Positions 2,780 to 42,007 of a DNA stretch of 64,000 nt are shown piece by piece; within the stretch, counting starts at the first letter, position 1, and every line of letters begins with the position of its first letter. The position numbers and the translations under genes were made by a program. Under the pieces are notes generated by a model. The model made no database searches. It worked only from the letters and a program-made list of their open reading frames with translations, and was not told where the DNA came from. The DNA lies in sequence record MK327943.1; one strand, given 5' to 3'. This DNA is from Escherichia phage vB_EcoM_G53.

Positions 2780-3736
2780 TTATTTGAAAGGTTTTACCAT
2801 ATGGAAATTTTGTTTGAAACGTTTGACGTAATCGTCGTGTCCTAAGCTTTGGTACATACTTACTACTTTGCTATAATTTTCCCAAGCGAACTCACGGAAC
2901 CATCCTGATGTGATTGATGTACAGACCTTTTCAAGGGCCATCATAAAACTATCACGTGGATGGATTTTAAAGTCGTTAGGAATCTGTGAACGTTCAAGAG
3001 CTAATACACAAGCTTCTTCATATACACCGGCTAATTTAACCATTTCTGGTAATGATTCGAACTTCTCGCGTGATGTCATAACTTCTGAGCCTTCTTTCAT
3101 ATAAAACTTATAAGCAGGCTGGTCAGTTAGTGCAATGGCTTCATGGATAGTATCATGGTCATACGTATAGATGTCATCTTTAAAGAACGCACTTTTAGAA
3201 GTGTCAAGAACTGGGTGAGCATAATTCAAGGTTTCTTTCTGGCGTTTCAGCATAATTTCAGTAAGTTCATCGTTCAGTGTAACACCTTTACCACGAAGAT
3301 ACTGAATATGGTTCATAGTCTTTAAAAAGAATGGATTATTTTTCTTGAAACGATGAGACATCTTAATTGCAAGACATATCTCAGGAGTTGCCCAGTAAAA
3401 CCCGTTCAAACGGTCTTTAGTCAAATTTTTCTTGGCGTATTTTAAAAGGTCATAAGAAGACGTGAAATCTTCAGGAGTGAGTTCACCGACTAGTTCGCGA
3501 ACGTTAGTGAGAGCCGGAACGATGTATGCTTCAAAATGAGTTTCGCGTCCATTATGGAAGCATTTGAAAACTTGGACATCAGGGTTATCTTGGTGAACAT
3601 ATACACCCATCATTTGATTTTTGAATGCATTCCAAGAACCTTGGTCCGCAATAAAGTCCCAATCACTATTTTTAATAGCGCTAGAATCAATAAGACCGTG
3701 ATAGTGAAGTGCACGAGAACCAATAACTAACATCAT
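2780..3736 (-). CDS. hypothetical protein (318 aa); N-terminal GS...DWD is weakly nucleotidyltransferase-like
   Basis: Long ORF, SD GAGGAAAAT upstream of ATG 3736; motif IGSRALHYHG...SDWDF; no secure domain call. Confidence 0.6.
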   Translation of the reverse strand: MMLVIGSRALHYHGLIDSSAIKNSDWDFIADQGSWNAFKNQMMGVYVHQDNPDVQVFKCFHNGRETHFEAYIVPALTNVRELVGELTPEDFTSSYDLLKYAKKNLTKDRLNGFYWATPEICLAIKMSHRFKKNNPFFLKTMNHIQYLRGKGVTLNDELTEIMLKRQKETLNYAHPVLDTSKSAFFKDDIYTYDHDTIHEAIALTDQPAYKFYMKEGSEVMTSREKFESLPEMVKLAGVYEEACVLALERSQIPNDFKIHPRDSFMMALEKVCTSITSGWFREFAWENYSKVVSMYQSLGHDDYVKRFKQNFHMVKPFK

Positions 3737-3764
3737 AATATTTTCCTCGGATTAATTCATTAAC

Positions 3765-4004
3765 TTAAATTTCACGACATGCGATATTATATTCATCCCA
3801 GAGGTCATCATGTGAAGCCTCTACCAATGGAACGATTGTACCGTTTATGTCTTCATTATAAGGGCAAATTGTACAGTGCGCATCTTCGAATCGGATGCCT
3901 TTGTGTTCAGATTTTTTATAACGCATATCGAATATCTTTGCAAACTTTTCACGAGTAATGGTTTTACCAACCACTTTGGTTCCGATACTTTCGTAATAAA
4001 TCAT
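3765..4004 (-). CDS. hypothetical protein (79 aa), Cys/His-containing
   Basis: ORF track 3765..4016; ATG 4004 has GGAG 8 nt upstream while ATG 4016 has no SD; contains HCTICPYNED. Confidence 0.5.
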   Translation of the reverse strand: MIYYESIGTKVVGKTITREKFAKIFDMRYKKSEHKGIRFEDAHCTICPYNEDINGTIVPLVEASHDDLWDEYNIACREI

Positions 4005-4023
4005 TGTGGACTCCATTTGTTTT

Positions 4024-4061
4024 GATAGGACTACTATAACATAGCCCTATCTTGTTGTAAA
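4024..4061 (-). promoter_or_regulatory. early promoter (PeSL-type)
   Basis: Minus strand TTTACA (4056-4061) - 17 bp - TATAGT (4033-4038); inverted repeat ATAGGACT / AGCCCTAT brackets the -10. Confidence 0.65.
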
Positions 4062-4066
4062 CTGTT

Positions 4067-4264
4067 TTAGCAAGAATAACTAGATGATACCCAGCCTTGA
4101 ACAGTGATACTATTGTGGGATAATGAGATCGCGTCCTGGAGATTCAGACCTGCGTTATCTTCAATCCATAATGTAACTTCTTCGCGTTCTTCTGTTGCAA
4201 TTTGGAACAGGTTTTCCAGAGCAGCTACTGCCGTACGTACAGCACAATCTAATTCACGAGACAT
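4067..4264 (-). CDS. small protein, GxWVxSSxxC C-terminal family (paralog 3 of 3, 65 aa)
   Basis: Ends VQGWVSSSYSC; SD TAAGGAAAC overlapping upstream stop; third of three tandem paralogs. Confidence 0.55.
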   Translation of the reverse strand: MSRELDCAVRTAVAALENLFQIATEEREEVTLWIEDNAGLNLQDAISLSHNSITVQGWVSSSYSC

Positions 4265-6875: not shown

Positions 6876-7103
6876 TTATTTTTTAATCAAATTGACATAA
6901 AACTTGGCGTCTTCTGGGTGCATGCCTTCGCAGTATTCTTCAACCATGAACTTCTTAACAGCTTCATAAGGACCACTCAGATTAAGCTCAGTTGTCCAGA
7001 ACTTGGAATCTTGGGCTGAATCGATATGAACTTCAGGGTGACGGTTGCGAATAACTTCTTCTGTGTATTCATAATCAACGACATCAATACTAACTTTAGC
7101 CAT
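6876..7103 (-). CDS. hypothetical protein (75 aa)
   Basis: ATG 7103 preceded by GAGAGGAAAA; single-gene cassette between two PeSL promoters. Confidence 0.5.
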   Translation of the reverse strand: MAKVSIDVVDYEYTEEVIRNRHPEVHIDSAQDSKFWTTELNLSGPYEAVKKFMVEEYCEGMHPEDAKFYVNLIKK

Positions 7104-7126
7104 TTTGTTTTCCTCTCATTTGATTT

Positions 7127-7164
7127 GATAGGTCTATAGTAACACCGTCCTTGGTGTTTGTACA
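7127..7164 (-). promoter_or_regulatory. early promoter (PeSL-type), weaker -35 (TGTACA)
   Basis: Minus strand TGTACA - 17 bp - TACTAT (7136-7141); TGATA / TATCA-type flanking repeat. Confidence 0.5.
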
Positions 7165-7668
7165 TCATTTATTTTTAATTTTGCAAATTTTTCCAGCTTC
7201 AATGCACGCAGCATAGATGATGCTCTGGGCAATTTTATTGCTAGTGGACCTTGCAATCACACTAAGAACAATTTCTTTTTCTTCACCACCACATCCCCAG
7301 CTATTTTGCCCATGTGTACCTTTAACTACGGCTGAAACTTCAACAGAACGTCCACCATCAGAAGTCTTAACATCCACAACCCAATCACCGTCTTTCTCAT
7401 TAACCTGTGGTTTATCCCAAGAAATACTAATATATGATTCACCGTCAATAGAAGTCGCCGGGTTTTTCTCTACAGTAAGACCTTCGCTTTCTAACCATTC
7501 AATAGTATTTGAGCATAAATCTGTAGAACATCTCATCGGAAAGCGGCATGATTTTTCACCTTTAGATGCAGCATCATACATCTTTTCCAAAATACGCTTT
7601 TGTACATTTTTAAAAACAACGTCACGCGATTCTTCAGATTTTTTATTCAGTTCAGTATAAAGACTCAT
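7165..7668 (-). CDS. hypothetical protein (167 aa)
   Basis: ATG 7668 preceded by GAGGAAAA; single-gene cassette after PeSL promoter at 7690-7726. Confidence 0.55.
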   Translation of the reverse strand: MSLYTELNKKSEESRDVVFKNVQKRILEKMYDAASKGEKSCRFPMRCSTDLCSNTIEWLESEGLTVEKNPATSIDGESYISISWDKPQVNEKDGDWVVDVKTSDGGRSVEVSAVVKGTHGQNSWGCGGEEKEIVLSVIARSTSNKIAQSIIYAACIEAGKICKIKNK

Positions 7669-7689
7669 AATGTTTTCCTCATTTGTTTT

Positions 7690-7726
7690 GATAGGTCTAT
7701 AGTATCATACCTCAAGGAGAAGTAAA
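7690..7726 (-). promoter_or_regulatory. early promoter (PeSL-type)
   Basis: Minus strand TTTACT - 16 bp - TACTAT (7699-7704). Confidence 0.5.
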
Positions 7727-7761
7727 CAACTTTGTGAAAAATTTATCTGCCCTAGATGCCC

Positions 7762-7788
7762 GAAAGCCCCTTCCTATGGTTGGGGCTT
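7762..7788 (-). other. GC-rich hairpin downstream of the internal-protein-like gene (no U-run)
   Basis: AAGCCCC ... GGGGCTT 7-bp stem; related to the hairpins at 8482-8505 and 50921-50944. Confidence 0.3.
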
Positions 7789-7805
7789 AAGTGATTGTAA
7801 CTTAA

Positions 7806-8432
7806 TTATTTACGGGTTTTTGCATACTGAGCAGCGTCAGCAGCCAAACGACCTGCTTGTCGAAGTTTTTCTTTAATCTCATCATGAAGTGGTTGAGTAT
7901 ACTTCAAACCTTCGATAGTCAAATAAAGACGATAAAGGTCTGGGGTATCAAGGTTGTTGATATGTTGGCCATTACGAAGAATATTGAATTCACGAACGAG
8001 TGAAGACGTATCAGATTCAATATCACGAACAAGCGAAGATAGTTGTTTATATTTTTTTTCCAGGCTAGAAGTATCAAACTTAAGAGCAGGAGCTTTAGGA
8101 GTTGCTTTTACTTCCGGCTTAGGCTCAGGTTTTGCTACTGCTTTAGGGGTCGCAGGTTTAGGAGTGGTAGGAGCAGGTTTCACTTTAGGCGAACCAGATT
8201 TAGCAGAAACACCACCACTAACAATATCTTTGAATGCTTTAGAAGCTCTGTAATATTCTTTTTGGCTGGAAGTGTCGATACCGTACATGGCTTGAACGTT
8301 TTTGAAAAACTCTGTACTAGTTTTTGTACCAGAAATAGCATCGTAAGCAGCTTGCCATTTCTCTTTTGTCATACGTACACCGGCTTCGGTGATTACTTCC
8401 GTTTCGGCTAAAAATTCATTAAAAGTATACAT
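7806..8432 (-). CDS. internal-protein-like capsid cargo candidate (208 aa) with capsid-targeting N-terminus and Pro/Lys-rich linker
   Basis: N-terminus MYTFNEFLAETE resembles the T4 internal-protein targeting sequence MKTYQEFIAE (prohead protease cuts after the LxE motif); low-complexity KPAPTTPKPATPKAVAKPEPKPEVKATPKAP; late promoter TATAAATA 35 nt upstream. Confidence 0.6.
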   Translation of the reverse strand: MYTFNEFLAETEVITEAGVRMTKEKWQAAYDAISGTKTSTEFFKNVQAMYGIDTSSQKEYYRASKAFKDIVSGGVSAKSGSPKVKPAPTTPKPATPKAVAKPEPKPEVKATPKAPALKFDTSSLEKKYKQLSSLVRDIESDTSSLVREFNILRNGQHINNLDTPDLYRLYLTIEGLKYTQPLHDEIKEKLRQAGRLAADAAQYAKTRK

Positions 8433-8467
8433 TGATGGTCCTTAGAAAGTAGGTTTATTGTTTACTA

Positions 8468-8475
8468 TATTTATA
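8468..8475 (-). promoter_or_regulatory. late promoter (TATAAATA) for the internal-protein-like gene
   Basis: Exact TATAAATA on the minus strand about 35 nt upstream of ATG 8432, immediately after the terminator at 8477-8505. Confidence 0.55.
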
Positions 8476-8476
8476 C

Positions 8477-8505
8477 AAAAAAGCCCCGACCTTTCGGAAG
8501 GGGCT
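8477..8505 (-). terminator. rho-independent terminator ending the tRNA/stable-RNA early transcript
   Basis: AGCCCC...GGGGCT stem (imperfect extension, UUCC-type loop) followed by UUUUUU on the minus strand. Confidence 0.7.
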
Positions 8506-8519
8506 ATATACCTTGTCGG

Positions 8520-8800
8520 GGTCCCACCTGCTAAGGCAAGTGTTTGTACGAAACGCCGGGATTCGAACCCGGTTATTAAGCAGTTGACGCTACTCAATAT
8601 TTTTAAAAGGCCATATCTCGACCATATCCGAACGTTCCGTCAAAAACGCTACTCGGCTTACGACAAAGATATTTCCTCGAATCGATAATTCTGTGCGCCG
8701 TTTCTGCTGTGATGTAAGGGGATATTAACAAATCGTAAAGATTTATTAAGACCAGTCCTTACTCAGGGAACATCAGTCCGACGTCTTGCCGGTAGCGACC
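8520..8800 (-). ncRNA. putative stable small RNA(s) with a tRNA-like 3' domain (comparable to T4 species 1/2 RNAs); boundaries approximate
   Basis: About 300 nt non-coding between CDS end 8808 and the terminator; minus strand has a canonical T-arm CCGGGTTCGAATCCCGG plus acceptor-like 3' strand but no complete cloverleaf. Confidence 0.3.
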
Positions 8801-8807
8801 CGGCTTC

Positions 8808-9152
8808 TTATTTTGGCATATCGTCAATTTGCTCTCGACGCCGACGCCATAGATTAATCGCTTCATAGGCACATTCTGCGTTTGGTATATGACGGCAATA
8901 ATATAATGATTCGCGTTTCTGGAACCGATGTTGCAACGGGATTTCGTTTAAAAGGTCTTTACGGTCAAAGTATTCAAAACTAGTTAACCCAGAACGGTTT
9001 TTAAGAAACTTCCAATGTCCGAATTCATTTTGAAAATAAACATAATCAGCATGCTGATACAGCGAATTAATTAACCTATCGGAAATAACTGTTTCACGTT
9101 CGTTAAAATAAAACGTTAAGTCATGAACTACCAGATAAATATTGCCTTTCAT
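8808..9152 (-). CDS. hypothetical protein (114 aa) immediately downstream of the tRNA genes
   Basis: ORF track 8808..9200 would overlap the tRNA; ATG 9152 preceded by GAGGAAAAT is used instead. Confidence 0.5.
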   Translation of the reverse strand: MKGNIYLVVHDLTFYFNERETVISDRLINSLYQHADYVYFQNEFGHWKFLKNRSGLTSFEYFDRKDLLNEIPLQHRFQKRESLYYCRHIPNAECAYEAINLWRRRREQIDDMPK

Positions 9153-9170
9153 ATTTTCCTCACTTGAAGT

Positions 9171-9247
<77 letters not shown>

Positions 9248-9253
9248 AATATA

Positions 9254-9327
9254 TGACCCAGACCAGATTCGAACTGGTAACCTTTCCCTTATGAGGGGAC
9301 TGCTGCTAACCATTGAGCTACAGGGCC
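9254..9327 (-). tRNA. tRNA with CAU anticodon (Met, or Ile with modified C34 as in the T4 tRNA-Ile)
   Basis: Manual fold: acceptor GGCCCTG/CTGGGTC (one mismatch), anticodon loop CTCATAA, T-arm ACCAG-TTCGAAT-CTGGT; D-arm slightly atypical. Confidence 0.65.
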
Positions 9328-9406
9328 TAAATAACTTTCTATTATGAAAGGCACTTTAGAGCACCTTTGGTAATAGAGGGTATGAATTAATAATAACACA
9401 TAATTC

Positions 9407-9922
9407 TTAAAGCAAATCAATCATTTTAACAGTCGGCAAAACGATTTCTTCTTCAATATAAGCAAATTCAACACATTCAACTACGCGCAAGAAATCATAA
9501 TCATAATATTCAGAAGCATGGCCAAGAATATCAATGAGACCTTCTGATACTAAATATCCATTCTCATGGAACAGGTCAAATACACGCGATTCGTCTTCTT
9601 CAGATTTATTACCAAGGTCGACTTCAATATCAAAGACCTTTTTAATGAATTCTGGATAAAGCTGGTCTGAGAACAATCCTTCAACCAAGTATTCATAGAT
9701 TAAAAGCGAACAATCACTGAATAGTGTATTACCACAGTAACGTTCAGCTTTAGTGCTGGAATGACGGCTCTTAAATTTCTTCAAAAGATATTTAAACTGT
9801 TGGAGCTCATGCTCTTCCACACCAAATAATGTTTTGGTTTTATAGTTGTCGCCGTCATTTTCCCAAGTAGTGACATCAATTACGTAACCCTTAGGAATTG
9901 TACTGCCTAAACAAATATTCAT
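9407..9922 (-). CDS. hypothetical protein (171 aa)
   Basis: ATG 9922 preceded by GGTGAG; last ORF of the early operon before the tRNAs. Confidence 0.55.
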   Translation of the reverse strand: MNICLGSTIPKGYVIDVTTWENDGDNYKTKTLFGVEEHELQQFKYLLKKFKSRHSSTKAERYCGNTLFSDCSLLIYEYLVEGLFSDQLYPEFIKKVFDIEVDLGNKSEEDESRVFDLFHENGYLVSEGLIDILGHASEYYDYDFLRVVECVEFAYIEEEIVLPTVKMIDLL

Positions 9923-9926
9923 TTAC

Positions 9927-10217
9927 TCACCGTACCATATTAATGTAATTATATTCAATGCAACATAATTTCAAAGGATTCTTGAAAATATCATATTCAA
10001 GAGGACCTTTTTCTGTTTCAATAAAGAAATCAAAGTTAACTGTGTTAAATTTATCGTCTTCACAGAGTAATTTAACTTGCGAAGATGAACGGTCGATATA
10101 AACCTTTTCAACCTCAAAGTTAGTCAGAATACCGTAGTCGTCGACTAGTGCTTTAGCTGCACGTTGATCGCTTTCATATCCATTCTCAACGGATTTTACC
10201 TTAGCATAAAGAATCAT
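9927..10217 (-). CDS. hypothetical protein (96 aa)
   Basis: ATG 10217 preceded by GGTGGAA; ATGA overlap with upstream gene. Confidence 0.55.
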   Translation of the reverse strand: MILYAKVKSVENGYESDQRAAKALVDDYGILTNFEVEKVYIDRSSSQVKLLCEDDKFNTVNFDFFIETEKGPLEYDIFKNPLKLCCIEYNYINMVR

Positions 10218-10576
10218 GAATGTTCCACCATTTCAAAGGTATGAGCATCAACAATATGATACCAGTCAAAATTTTCTTCTGCGTTTTTATAAATTTCGCG
10301 AAGAGCCTCAACAGTTTTTCCTGTAGCAACAAGGTCGTCAATACCACCAAGAGGATAACAGTCATAACCAGCAAACAGAAGGAAATTAATAGTTTCTGTA
10401 GGTTCTGGATGCAGAACTCCGTTATCGTCTACCACTTCAAAGAAAGTGTAAGAAGGAGTACAAGTTTTAATCCAGGCCCATGCTTGAGCTGCTGAATCAA
10501 ACGGATTACGGAATAAACGACAATCTGGGTCTTTAGAAGGATTTGCTTCAAAATCCGCATATATGTGATATTTCAT
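10214..10576 (-). CDS. hypothetical protein (120 aa)
   Basis: ORF track 10214..10594; start placed at ATG 10576 (MKYHIY) preceded by AAGGTGAG. Confidence 0.55.
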   Translation of the reverse strand: MKYHIYADFEANPSKDPDCRLFRNPFDSAAQAWAWIKTCTPSYTFFEVVDDNGVLHPEPTETINFLLFAGYDCYPLGGIDDLVATGKTVEALREIYKNAEENFDWYHIVDAHTFEMVEHS

Positions 10577-10577
10577 T

Positions 10578-10763
10578 TTACTCACCTTTTGCAATTTTAT
10601 CCATAACGATAGCGATTAAGCCGATTAGAAATGCTACTACCAATGAGATAGAATTTTCTGTTGTTGACAGTAGTCCACAAATGAATCCTACAAACATCGA
10701 AAAACTAAAAGCCATTGAAGCAATTACTACAGCAACATTACGAATCAGTTCAGCGCGTTTCAT
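10578..10763 (-). CDS. small membrane protein (61 aa)
   Basis: ORF track 10578..10784; ATG 10763 preceded by GGAG; one long hydrophobic segment. Confidence 0.5.
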   Translation of the reverse strand: MKRAELIRNVAVVIASMAFSFSMFVGFICGLLSTTENSISLVVAFLIGLIAIVMDKIAKGE

Positions 10764-10791
10764 TTTATTTCTCCATTTACTCATTTGATTT

Positions 10792-10829
10792 GATAGGACT
10801 ACTATAACATAGTCCTATCATCATGTAAA
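10792..10829 (-). promoter_or_regulatory. early promoter (PeSL-type)
   Basis: Minus strand TTTACA (10824-10829) - 17 bp - TATAGT (10801-10806); perfect 8-bp inverted repeat ATAGGACT / AGTCCTAT brackets the -10. Confidence 0.65.
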
Positions 10830-10832
10830 CTA

Positions 10833-11096
10833 TTAAATTCCAGCTTCGCGTTTAACATAATCGACATAAGCTTGGATAGCTTTCTTGCTGGTAATTTTTA
10901 CCTGGCCACGACCATTGCCTTCTTTAGAGTTTTTCTTAACAACTACATTACCATCTTTAACACCCCATACATGGACATAAGTACCGATGTTTCGGTCGTA
11001 GAACATTGCATGGTCGTTGTTGTAAGAGAATGATTCGTAGTTCTCCGACAGAGTAGAAGATTGAGATTCAGCGATAAATTCTTTATACGTTTTCAT
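10833..11096 (-). CDS. internal-protein-like capsid cargo candidate (87 aa)
   Basis: N-terminus MKTYKEFIAES matches the T4 internal-protein capsid-targeting sequence; own PeSL promoter. Confidence 0.6.
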   Translation of the reverse strand: MKTYKEFIAESQSSTLSENYESFSYNNDHAMFYDRNIGTYVHVWGVKDGNVVVKKNSKEGNGRGQVKITSKKAIQAYVDYVKREAGI

Positions 11097-11122
11097 TTGT
11101 TTTTCCGTTTGGTTGTTGATTT

Positions 11123-11160
11123 GATAGGACTACTATAACATAGTCCTATCTGCATGTAAA
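11123..11160 (-). promoter_or_regulatory. early promoter (PeSL-type)
   Basis: Minus strand TTTACA (11155-11160) - 17 bp - TATAGT (11132-11137); same 26-bp palindrome as at 10792. Confidence 0.65.
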
Positions 11161-11164
11161 CTAC

Positions 11165-11452
11165 TTACAGAAGAGTTTTTGCAATAATTTTAAGCTGAGC
11201 TACAGAAATATGCTTAGCTTTAAACAGTGCGGTCTCTTCAGCCGGAGAGATAACAATAGTAGCGCCATCTTTCTTAGCAGACCATCCATCCCCTAAGTAA
11301 ACAGTACCTTTTACTTCTTCGCCATCAACCAGACTAATCATCGGTTTACCCTCACGTCCTTTATTTGCTTTAATAACTTCGGAAGTAAGGGTTGCTTCGG
11401 TCAGAGTAGAAACGTTAGCAACAGGTGATATAAATTCTTTATAGGTTTTCAT
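11165..11452 (-). CDS. internal-protein-like capsid cargo candidate (95 aa), at the position T4 ipI occupies next to 57B
   Basis: N-terminus MKTYKEFIS...LTEA resembles the capsid-targeting sequence; SD AAGGAAAT; orthology to ipI not established. Confidence 0.6.
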   Translation of the reverse strand: MKTYKEFISPVANVSTLTEATLTSEVIKANKGREGKPMISLVDGEEVKGTVYLGDGWSAKKDGATIVISPAEETALFKAKHISVAQLKIIAKTLL

Positions 11453-11480
11453 TTTATTTCCTTGAGGTTGTTTATTTGAT

Positions 11481-11515
11481 AGGATGATAGTAACACACCA
11501 TCATCCTTATGTAAA
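11481..11515 (-). promoter_or_regulatory. early promoter (PeSL-type)
   Basis: Minus strand TTTACA (11510-11515) - 17 bp - TACTAT (11487-11492); inverted repeat AGGATGAT / ATCATCCT brackets the -10. Confidence 0.65.
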
Positions 11516-11529
11516 CTGTTTTGTGAAAA

Positions 11530-12215
<686 letters not shown>

Positions 12216-14979: not shown

Positions 14980-14987
14980 TATAAATA
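14980..14987 (+). promoter_or_regulatory. late promoter (TATAAATA) for the gene 53-5 transcription unit
   Basis: Exact TATAAATA on plus strand about 43 nt upstream of the gene 53 start. Confidence 0.55.
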
Positions 14988-14994
14988 GTATTAT

Positions 14995-15002
14995 TATTTA
15001 TA
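14995..15002 (-). promoter_or_regulatory. late promoter (TATAAATA) for gene 4, divergent from the gene 53 promoter
   Basis: Exact TATAAATA on minus strand 27 nt upstream of gene 4 ATG 14968. Confidence 0.55.
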
Positions 15003-40095: not shown

Positions 40096-40520
40096 TGTAT
40101 CTTATCCCTGAATCTTATGAATTGGTACTCGAAAATGTCGAAGCACTTATTCCTGAAGCACAGGGCCGAATCGATGCATTGTCTTCTGCTCTCGATATTG
40201 ACGATATAAATACTATTATCGAGAACATGCTTGAAACTGAAACGGATTTAGCTGTTGCAATGGCTTCCATTATTAATGAAGAACAGTTAAATGAGTTTAT
40301 CGTTAAACATGTTTCTTCTCGTGGTGAAGTCACCCGCACTAAAGACCGTAAAACTCGTGAACGTAACGCGTTCCAAACCACTGGTCTTTCTAAAGCAAAA
40401 CGTAGACAAATCGCTCGTAAGGTCGTTAAAGCTAAAAAAGCTAACCCTTCAGGCCAAGTTAAAGGCTTGCGTAAGCGTAAAAAGGCTCTTAAACGTCGTA
40501 AAGCATTAGGATTAAGCTAA
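40095..40520 (+). CDS. 68: prohead core protein gp68
   Basis: 141 aa, T4 size and order. Confidence 0.85.
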
Positions 40521-41161
40521 TGAATAAACCCGAGTTACTTATTGAAACTTGGGGTCAACCCGGTGAGATTATTGATGGCGTTCCAATGTTGGAATCTCAT
40601 GATGGAAAAGATTCTGGCTTAAAACCAGGGCTTTATATAGAAGGTATTTTTCTTCAGGCAGAGGTTGTTAACCGAAATAAACGTTTATATCCTAAACGCG
40701 TTTTGGAAAAAGCAGTAAGTGACTATATTAAAGAACAAGTCGCAACCAAACAAGCCCTTGGAGAATTAAACCATCCACCTCGTGCAAATGTTGACCCTAT
40801 GCAAGCCGCTATCATTATTGAAGATATGTGGTGGAAAGGAAACGATGTATATGGACGTGCTAGAATTATTGAAGGCGACCATGGTCCCGGCGATAAATTA
40901 GCTGCTAATATACGAGCTGGTTGGATTCCAGGTGTTTCCTCTCGTGGTCTTGGTTCTTTAACCGACACCAATAAAGGGTACCGTATCGTGAACGAAGGAT
41001 TTAAATTAACCGTCGGCGTAGATGCCGTATGGGGACCTTCTGCTCCAGATGCTTGGGTTACTCCTAAACAAATATCAGAATCAGAAAATTCGGTGGAAAC
41101 CACCAAAAACAGTGCTGATGAAGCATTTAAAGCTCTCGCAGAGAGTTTAAAAACATTATAA
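40520..41161 (+). CDS. 21: prohead core protease gp21
   Basis: 213 aa, T4 size and order. Confidence 0.9.
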   Translation: MNKPELLIETWGQPGEIIDGVPMLESHDGKDSGLKPGLYIEGIFLQAEVVNRNKRLYPKRVLEKAVSDYIKEQVATKQALGELNHPPRANVDPMQAAIIIEDMWWKGNDVYGRARIIEGDHGPGDKLAANIRAGWIPGVSSRGLGSLTDTNKGYRIVNEGFKLTVGVDAVWGPSAPDAWVTPKQISESENSVETTKNSADEAFKALAESLKTL

Positions 41162-41194: not shown

Positions 41195-42007
41195 ATGATC
41201 AAAGAACAACTTTTGAAAGAAGCTCAGAACATCGAGACTTCAGTTGCTCTTAATAGTGTTTTCGAATCAGTAGAACTGTCTCCGGACGTTAAAGCTAATT
41301 TCAGCACTGTATTCGAAGCCACCGTTAAGCAGGAAGCAGTCAAACTGGCTGAATCTCATATCAAAGCCATCGCCGAAAAAGCCGAAGAAGAAGTTGAAAA
41401 GGCTAAAGAAGATGCTGAAGAGAAAGCTGATAAAAAATTGGCTGAACAAGCTTCTAAATTCCTAGACCATCTTGCAAAAGAATGGCTCGCAGAAAACCAA
41501 ATCGCAGTTGATAAAGGCATTAAAGCTGATTTGTTCGAATCCATGCTTGGTGGTCTGAAAGAACTGTTTGTTGAACATAACGTTGTTGTTCCAGAAGAAT
41601 CTGTAGATGTTGTAGCAGAAATGGAAGAAGAGCTGGCCGAACATAAAGAAGAAACCGCTCGTTTGTTCGAAGAAGTTACCAAACGTGATGCATATATCAA
41701 TTACGTTCAGCGTGAAACCGCTATTAATGAAAGCGTAAAAGACCTGACTGAATCTCAGAAAGAAAAAGTTATTGGCCTGGTTGAAGGTATGGATTATTCT
41801 GACGCATTTGGTACTAAGTTAACTGCTATTGTAGAAATGGTTAAAGGTTCTACTAAAGAAGAAGCCGCTATTACCGAAAGTATAAATACAGTTGACAATG
41901 ACGCTGCCGGTCTTAATTTTGTTGCCGAAGCAGTTGACACTACCACAACTCAGGTAGAACAGAATTCTAATGTAAGTTTATATGCGAAAGTCGCATCTCG
42001 TTTCTAA
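41195..42007 (+). CDS. 22: prohead core scaffold protein gp22
   Basis: 270 aa, Glu/Lys/Ala-rich; T4 size and order. Confidence 0.9.
   Translation: MIKEQLLKEAQNIETSVALNSVFESVELSPDVKANFSTVFEATVKQEAVKLAESHIKAIAEKAEEEVEKAKEDAEEKADKKLAEQASKFLDHLAKEWLAENQIAVDKGIKADLFESMLGGLKELFVEHNVVVPEESVDVVAEMEEELAEHKEETARLFEEVTKRDAYINYVQRETAINESVKDLTESQKEKVIGLVEGMDYSDAFGTKLTAIVEMVKGSTKEEAAITESINTVDNDAAGLNFVAEAVDTTTTQVEQNSNVSLYAKVASRF

Follow-up and report, generated by a model that had tools for sequence, protein, structure and literature searches.

The internal proteins (IPs) of the T-even phage head are defined by a shared N-terminal signal carried on otherwise unrelated bodies (PMC3012670; PMC12373910). The first 10 residues of T4 IPIII are enough to load foreign proteins into the head (PMC3012670; PMC8442874). 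Within this capsid-targeting sequence (CTS), positions 4 and 7 matter for targeting and positions 8 and 10 for processing by gp21, which cuts after L/I-X-E (PMC9026906). IPI enters the head, is injected and acts as an inhibitor of a type IV restriction enzyme (PMC3012670; PMC12373910), and a different GmrSD type IV restriction enzyme is the target of each of Ip1, Ip2 and Ip3 (PMC12373910). Here we describe an open reading frame (ORF) of Escherichia phage vB_EcoM_G53 (MK327943.1), of which a stretch of 64,000 nucleotides, referred to as the window, was analysed. This ORF, ORF208, occupies 7806..8432 on the minus strand in the ORF list, starts with ATG, has its stop codon at 7806-7808 and encodes 208 amino acids; the finding comprises ORF208 and its upstream control region up to 8475. 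We propose that ORF208 belongs to a new family of T4-type internal head proteins that are packaged and injected, and we give this account as a whole a probability of about 0.65. By its gene order, the window phage falls into the RB69/JS09 group (Mosigvirus) of the T4-type phages and is distinct from T4 itself.

The N-terminus of the translated ORF208 reads MYTFNEFLAETEVITEAG (MYTFNEFLAETE). Its first ten residues, MYTFNEFLAE, are identical to MKTYQEFIAE of T4 ipII and ipIII at 6/10 positions, and the closeness to the T4 tag pointed out in the initial annotation of this DNA is thus confirmed. The differences at F4, N5 and L8 are conservative, and F4, F7, L8 and E10 fit the critical positions 4, 7, 8 and 10 of the CTS. 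The JS98-type orthologues start with MKTYNEFLNES and are nearer to the T4 sequence. Only two ORFs in the six frames of the 64-kb window have the strict motif M-x-x-[FY]-x-[ED]-[FIL]-[ILV]-x-E at the start Met, namely ORF208 and the ORF at 10833..11096; a rough estimate from typical residue frequencies puts the chance occurrence of this motif at ~2e-5 per ORF start. A looser motif applied to 21 related loci recovered only known IPs (T4 ipII and ipIII), the ORF208 family, its neighbours and one obvious false positive.

The tag is kept across the family. All 12-16 relatives examined, from at least seven T4-type genera, start with M-x-x-[FY]-[NK]-[ED]-[FI]-[LIV]-x-E, and F7 and E16 are invariant in the close-family alignment. 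Departures were seen in the Jiaodavirus copies and in Serratia phage 92A1 (P0026), where the tag is one residue shorter, and in P0027, which has D-G at positions 9-10 yet keeps ITE at 15. The conserved tag residues use varied synonymous codons (TTT/TTC; TTA/TTG/CTC/CTG/CTA/ATT/ATC; GAA/GAG), so that selection acts on the tag peptide. The tag persists in front of an unrelated N-terminal domain (P0025, P0027) and together with unrelated C-terminal domains, which are of one type in CIP9, P0023, KP179 and UTI-K1 and of another in P0026. By these alignments the tag behaves as an independent module.

Residues 1-16 (8385..8432, minus strand) form a predicted propeptide of net charge -4, which contains MYTFNEFLAE and two putative gp21 sites, at E10 and at E16 (ITE16↓A). 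The sequence I14-T15-E16↓A17 is the same tetrapeptide as in the T4 IPI site STITE↓A, and 12/12 family members have one or more [LIV]xE sites among their first 18 residues. Going by these sequences, cleavage at ITE↓A is no less likely than at FLAE↓. The initial annotation had interpreted the N-terminus as a capsid-targeting tag removed by the prohead protease after FLAE; the targeting and removal are supported by the conserved tag, the sites, the late promoter box and the basic character of the relatives, but FLAE is probably not the only candidate site. The window also encodes the gp21 protease (Peptidase_S77, 40520-41161, 2.8e-107) and the gp22 scaffold (T4_CASP, 41195-42007, 1.5e-89), and likewise the gp20 portal, gp67 and gp23. 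As far as sequence can tell, ORF208 has every feature by which the CTS-bearing internal head proteins of T4-type phages can be recognized.

Without residues 1-10 or 1-16, ORF208 is predicted to be a protein of 21.3-22.0 kDa with an isoelectric point (pI) of 9.6-9.7 and a net charge of +11 to +13, and the predicted mature forms of all 12 members examined have a pI of 9.6-9.95 and a net charge of +9 to +18. There is one further L/I-x-E site in the body, IKE188. Since this sole extra site is not conserved, the body should survive gp21, as the IPs do. The same site bears on another explanation, in which ORF208 is an accessory of the prohead core that is recruited by its tag and then degraded or expelled like gp22, gp67 and gp68, affecting head assembly and not being injected. 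Such a protein might well have the N-terminal L/I-x-E sites, the predicted late expression alongside the head genes and the all-helical model of ORF208, the last being a likeness to scaffolding proteins, and T4 IPIII mutants show head-assembly aberrations (PMC9026906). However the core proteins are cut into multiple fragments while ORF208 has the single non-conserved internal site, the gene is dispensable in many relatives, and the basic pI and the size match those of the retained IPs, so we consider a core accessory highly improbable.

ORF208 is preceded by a late promoter box TATAAATA at 8468-8475 (minus strand), an exact match that is separated from the ATG by 35 nt. A Shine-Dalgarno sequence AAGGA, read from the sequence, is located at 8439..8443 (minus strand), 6 nt upstream of the ATG at 8432. 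Immediately in front of the box, the terminator scan and folding revealed an intrinsic terminator at 8477..8504 (minus strand), which consists of a hairpin at 8483-8504 (GCCCCUUCC-GAAA-GGUCGGGGC; -15 kcal/mol, z = -3.4) and a U-run at 8477-8482. The initial annotation had described an exact late promoter right after a terminator, in contrast to the two other IP-like genes, and both points stand: the window ipI and the ORF at 10833..11096 lack an upstream late box and are preceded by T4-early-type promoters (GTTTACA...TATAGT/TACTAT). No N-ATAAATA box was found within 70 nt upstream of the ATG of the classical ip genes of T4, JS98 and the window. All the promoter and terminator assignments in this study are sequence-based.

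The late box is enriched in the window and conserved in front of the family. We counted 18 TATAAATA boxes in the 64-kb window versus 7.3±3.0 expected, and 0/100 shuffles reached 18. In 15/16 distinct loci the ATG is preceded by an N-ATAAATA box at a distance of 35-44 nt (31 nt for the tagged ADP-ribosyltransferase gene next to the homologue in L017, described below). It is the exact TATAAATA in eight loci, i.e. the window, JS98, IME281, PG7, an IMG/VR contig, fHe-Yen9-01, KP179 and UTI-K1, and a variant in the others, GATAAATA in five and CATAAATA in two. A hairpin precedes most of these boxes. The sole exception to the box is Serratia phage 92A1 (P0026), in which the ORF208 homologue overlaps the preceding ORF. 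Through late expression, ORF208 would be available at the time of prohead assembly. Elsewhere in the window, at 14980-15002, the two strands each carry an exact TATAAATA box, placed back to back; presumably genes 4 and 53 have a pair of divergent late promoters between them.

The upstream terminator aligns with the T4 rnaC terminator, and the homology to T4 stops exactly after it. We infer that it closes the tRNA/rnaD/rnaC transcription unit and shields ORF208 from early and middle read-through. On the other side of the gene, a downstream stem-loop at 7765..7787 (minus strand; -13.6 kcal/mol, z -2.6 by folding) is followed by a T4-early-type promoter GTTTAC...GATACTAT of the next gene, with the -35 element at 7722-7727 and the -10 element at 7699-7706. 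A stem-loop followed by GTTTAC...TAnnAT was found downstream of most homologues examined. Because of the flanking terminator, the late box, the stem-loop and the early promoter, ORF208 can be regarded as a self-contained one-gene late transcription unit within an otherwise early region.

The two hairpins that flank ORF208 (8483-8504 and 7765-7787) share the architecture GCCCC-NN-CC-loop-GG-NN-GGGGC, and the sequence after the downstream hairpin, GGGGCTTTCGGGCATCTAGGG, resembles that behind the T4 rnaC terminator, GGGGCTTTTTGGTATCTAAGCC. The likeness of both the hairpins and the sequences following them suggests that the cassette was gained or lost by recombination between stem-loops. Mobile promoter/stem-loop cassettes have been proposed earlier for T4-type phages.

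The region is recombination-prone and hyperplastic in T4-type genomes, and together with the cassette-like stem-loop flanks this is what one would expect if ORF208 were a late cytoplasmic or envelope protein that is never packaged, acting for example in lysis timing, superinfection exclusion or host interaction, with the tag being a functionless relic of recombination with an ip gene. Pro/Lys/Ala-rich spacers like that of ORF208 occur in envelope-spanning proteins such as TonB, and our literature search found no proteomic data for the family members. Against this, the peptide sequence of the tag has been retained through synonymous changes, in at least seven genera and across domain swaps. Neither a signal peptide nor a transmembrane helix was found in ORF208, and the acidic propeptide, the conserved E-A cleavage context and the basic body fit the IP pattern in every member. 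We give very little credence to a protein that stays out of the head.

The predicted mature protein has two helical domains joined by a linker. The N-terminal three-helix domain, residues 17-73 (8214..8384, minus strand; ERMTKxKW...YG...YYK...AFK), has a predicted local distance difference test (pLDDT) score of ~85 over residues 20-72 in the AlphaFold2 model, and is conserved in the relatives, including some with another C-terminal domain. The C-terminal helical domain, residues 119-208 (7809..8078, minus strand; FDTSSLxKKYxQL...LRNGQxxNNLxTPDLY...YTQP), is modelled as three helices with a pLDDT of 82-90 over residues 120-206 and is the most conserved part of ORF208 by the alignment invariants. 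Between them, residues 74-118 (8079..8213, minus strand) form a disordered basic Pro/Lys/Ala/Thr-rich linker with a net charge of +8 and four S/T-P-K-x motifs, and the pLDDT is below 50 over residues 74-112. The low-complexity stretch itself covers 77-116 (P11, K9-10, A8, net +7/+8); such a segment had been noted before, but with a length of 30 residues instead of the ~40-45 that we observed. The AlphaFold2 model, built on a shallow 9-sequence alignment, has a mean pLDDT of 71, and its N-terminal helix is of low confidence.

The linker is basic (+3 to +9) in 12/12 family members, although its sequence is not conserved. It may be simply a flexible spacer. The constant charge could also mean that ORF208 is packaged for a physical role, as a basic DNA-coating protein whose tether neutralises charge, organises the DNA, or aids or protects its ejection. 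The net charge of +13 of mature ORF208 agrees with this, the well-conserved C-terminal domain would suit a housekeeping interaction better than an arms race, and the T4 head holds ~1000 IP molecules embedded in the DNA (PMC3012670). But the gene forms an accessory cassette that neither T4 nor close relatives of the carriers possess, so that ORF208 is not required generally for DNA packaging or ejection. Furthermore the exchange of C-terminal domains is suggestive of effectors that diversify, and all three T4 IPs once deemed merely structural now have anti-restriction targets (PMC12373910). We consider a purely physical role unlikely; should ORF208 prove to be only a DNA-associated structural protein, it would still extend the catalogue of head contents.

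Our preferred account, of a packaged and injected internal protein, can be put into five steps, the first four of which derive from sequence features that were validated experimentally in T4 and the last from analogy. ORF208 would be transcribed only late, from its own TATAAATA promoter, with the front terminator stopping early read-through and the rear stem-loop making a one-gene unit. During prohead formation MYTFNEFLAE would dock the protein into the gp22 scaffolding core. Then gp21 would cut after Glu10 (FLAE↓) and/or Glu16 (ITE↓A) and remove the acidic propeptide, leaving a basic protein of ~21 kDa (pI ~9.7, net +11 to +13) with two small helical domains on a Lys/Pro tether. The basic tether probably holds this protein on the packaged DNA, and the beads-on-a-string shape would allow it to pass out of the head along with the DNA, by way of the portal and tail, when the next cell is infected, so that it would be in the cell ahead of any phage gene expression. 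There it would most likely neutralise a host factor attacking the incoming DNA, by analogy to T4 Ip1-3.

We hold these steps with unequal confidence. That ORF208 is packaged in the head and processed appears quite probable from its sequence, while an anti-defence role, suggested by analogy, is a possibility to which we give somewhat less than an even chance. One relevant case is the tag-bearing Bas37_0260, which was reported as an inhibitor candidate for the type IV restriction of E. coli K-12; its disruption carries a fitness cost on K-12 with type IV systems and none on a strain without them (bioRxiv 10.1101/2025.11.20.689424).

Several observations weigh against the proposed account. At the N-terminus, residue 2 is Tyr rather than Lys, and in some relatives the late control would depend on G/C-ATAAATA variants, which we infer to work as late promoters. 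The C-terminal domain is strongly conserved, which is unexpected for a fast-evolving arms-race protein, and mature ORF208 has no likeness in sequence, domain or fold to any anti-defence protein. Fold searches returned only orthologues or generic helical hairpins. A homology of the body to T4 IPII/IPIII was considered and rejected, as hhalign aligns the tag region only. For Ip4-10, no reproducible inhibition of the GmrSD variants tested was seen (PMC12373910, Supplementary Fig. 9 legend), hence the tag alone does not predict a GmrSD target. A search of the literature on family members (including those of fHe-Yen9-01, JS98, a Kosakonia phage and Karamvirus ECLFM1) turned up neither virion proteomics nor N-terminal sequencing, and no injection assay or mutant phenotype. 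The one usable purified-virion data set is that of the Jiaodavirus phages ValerieMcCarty03/04, both of which lack the ORF208 gene. In addition to these points, Pfam gave nothing above noise for ORF208 and its domain-swapped relatives, and a profile search with ORF208 against the PDB sequences gave no match. With the fold, PDB-profile and hhalign searches all uninformative, the biochemical activity is not readable from sequence or fold.

ORF208 matches PHROG 2280, a family with no function assigned, at E = 4.2e-58 over residues 1-203 of 208, and the domain-swapped variants match it over the shared half only. By tblastn we found full-length homologues in 138 phage records, and in 189 when a Klebsiella-type member was used as the query. 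The carriers include Mosigvirus, Dhakavirus (JS98 orf135), Karamvirus (PG7_146), Marfavirus, Kanagawavirus (CIP9) and Jiaodavirus, as well as fHe-Yen9-01 and phages of Serratia, Erwinia and Kosakonia. Every inspected record and database name of the family carries the label 'hypothetical protein'. When 1.84 billion representative proteins were searched exhaustively by profile, only 13 clusters and no homologue annotated as cellular were obtained; the clusters whose context was examined come from T4-type phages or metagenomic fragments of such phages.

Wherever the context is available, the homologues are located after the tRNA cluster and before e.8/e.6. The gene order of the window is JS09-like (1, 57A, 57B, ipI, trna.4-.2, tRNAs, ORF208 and the e.x genes), with JS09_035 being the syntenic orthologue. 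ORF208 is a presence/absence cassette at this site: T4 and Klebsiella phage ValerieMcCarty03 have an empty site with the same terminator, and in T4 the gap between rnaC and e.8 is 285 bp and has no ORF208.

Other tagged genes occupy the same site. In the metagenomic contig L017 (logan:SRR28624380_555336), a 144-aa gene at 2092-2526 directly follows the ORF208 homologue, with its own CATAAATA box and the tag MITFKQFLNES fused to an ART-PolyVal ADP-ribosyltransferase (ART) domain (PF18760, 1.9e-11, 45.4 bits versus a cut-off of 31.2; PHROG 4700). From its sequence the product looks like a small capsid-targeted ART, a mini-Alt, since T4 packages an enzyme of this type as Alt. Yersinia phage fHe-Yen9-01 (L011) encodes two tagged PHROG 2280 paralogues in tandem, at 3001-3570 (MLQYNEFLKES...) and 3580-4116 (MLEYSEFLKEL...), which are probably co-transcribed since a late box is present before the first only. 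We speculate, tentatively and with more doubt than conviction, that the rnaC-e.8 junction of the Tevenvirinae is a second and strictly late-controlled cargo-loading locus with swappable effector cassettes, in which the tag, helical domain and tether of the ORF208 family serve as a reusable delivery chassis for interchangeable C-terminal (and N-terminal) effector domains. One-gene cassettes, each made of a terminator hairpin, a late box, a tag, a cargo and a stem-loop, would be exchanged between phages at such a locus. If this is true, it would be a polymorphic injected-effector system like the bacterial polymorphic toxins, with an ADP-ribosyltransferase among the cargos.

Upstream of ORF208 on the minus strand are tRNA-Met and tRNA-Arg (9171-9327), followed by the rnaD and rnaC homologues (species 2 and 1; ~8500-8790, minus strand; ~290 bp), which are ~93-95% identical to the T4 stable RNAs. 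The window has only these two tRNA genes (Arg-TCT and Met-CAT), whereas T4 has eight plus the segB homing endonuclease at the same locus. A small RB69ORF150c-like ORF of ~114-130 aa (MKGNIYLVVHDL...) at 8808..9200 (minus strand) separates tRNA-Arg from rnaD, an insertion relative to T4, which has nothing there, and its TTG-start version overlaps the tRNA. An Rfam scan of 7000-12000 detected just the two tRNAs; because rnaC and rnaD have no Rfam family, their homologues would escape standard RNA annotation.

The window has further internal-protein genes or candidates. Its ipI at 11165..11452 matches Pfam PF11634 (IPI_T4) at 1.3e-50. Between ipI and trna.4, the 87-aa IP-like ORF at 10833..11096 (minus strand), under an early-type promoter, starts with MKTYKEFIAES, a near-perfect T4 CTS. 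It matches PHROG 13302 (no function assigned) and is absent from JS09; 35 records matched it, and the annotated ones among those listed all call it 'hypothetical'. Its sequence makes it a further unannotated internal-protein candidate. In phage JS98 (EF469154), a 97-aa ORF with MKTYQEFIKES at 1796-2089 of L001, between 57B and trna.4, is unannotated in the record and is probably a missed internal-protein gene. In ValerieMcCarty03 (L018) the 'putative IpIII internal head protein' at 561-1142 (MDSLHAPRNG...) has no capsid tag; it looks mis-named, and the genuine tagged genes are its two neighbours (MKTYKEFITEA... and MKTYQEFLNES...).

Before phage transcription begins, no phage factors other than the internal proteins are present in the cell. 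Given this and the specific inhibition of different type IV enzymes by T4 Ip1-3, shown in 2025 (PMC12373910), the ORF208 family is a concrete candidate for a new anti-defence activity. It is unannotated in ~190 sequenced phages of E. coli, Shigella, Klebsiella, Enterobacter, Serratia, Yersinia, Erwinia and Kosakonia, and many of the carrier phages are therapeutic candidates. The conserved combination of a tag and a basic tether might in addition be used as a natural scaffold to bring foreign proteins into T4-type capsids.

Among the known systems, T4 IPIII/Ip3 resembles ORF208 in its 10-residue tag ending in L/I-x-E↓ (MKTYQEFIAE versus MYTFNEFLAE), in the length of its precursor (193 versus 208 aa) and in being encoded by a non-essential accessory gene. 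The mature proteins are also alike in charge, IPIII* (183 aa) having a pI of 9.65 and a net charge of +10 and mature ORF208 a predicted pI of 9.7 and net charge of +13, while the pI of IPII* is 9.56. There is a faint similarity just past the tag, INKDEW in IPIII versus MTKEKW in ORF208 (hhalign, 25 columns), but no detectable homology beyond approximately residue 25. The two genes differ in their locations, ipIII being next to gene e and ORF208 between rnaC and e.8, and in their control, since T4 ipIII has no N-ATAAATA box within 70 nt and ORF208 has a late box behind a terminator. ORF208 further differs in having two domains and a disordered basic linker. The target of Ip3 is the GmrSD of ECOR17 (PMC12373910).

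IPI/Ip1 (PF11634) has the tag MKTF/YKEF and the cleavage site ITE↓A, the latter being identical to residues 14-17 of ORF208. However ORF208 does not match the PF11634 profile, to which its neighbour at 11165..11452 is assigned. IPI* is a compact single domain of 76 aa, while mature ORF208 would have ~192-198 aa and two domains, and the window ipI has an early-type promoter and no late box. The genes of Ip4-Ip10 are situated at the ipI locus, flanked by 57B and trna.4. ORF208, which follows the tRNA/rnaC cluster, is by this difference in position probably distinct from them. ORF208 fits the tag-only definition of this class (Ip4-Ip10+; Repoila et al. 1994, cited in PMC12373910).

With regard to Alt and the ART-PolyVal proteins (PF18760), the link is the tag-bearing ART-PolyVal gene that follows the ORF208 homologue in L017, whereas ORF208 itself has no ART or other enzymatic domain by Pfam. 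Alt has a size of ~70-76 kDa. Proteins of this kind are expressed late, packaged in the head, processed by gp21 and delivered with the DNA, and T4 Alt is cut at both ends (PMC9026906). The linker at residues 74-118 of ORF208, with its four S/T-P-K-x motifs, resembles in composition and charge, and with no sequence homology, a different group of proteins. These are the Lys/Pro/Ala-rich DNA-binding tails such as the S/TPKK repeats of the histone H1 C-terminus and the PAKKA/KPAA repeats of mycobacterial HupB and AlgP-type proteins. Taken by its sequence, ORF208 is different from the classical IPs in its locus, in its strictly late and terminator-insulated cassette, in its two-domain tethered architecture and in the shuffling of domains within its family.

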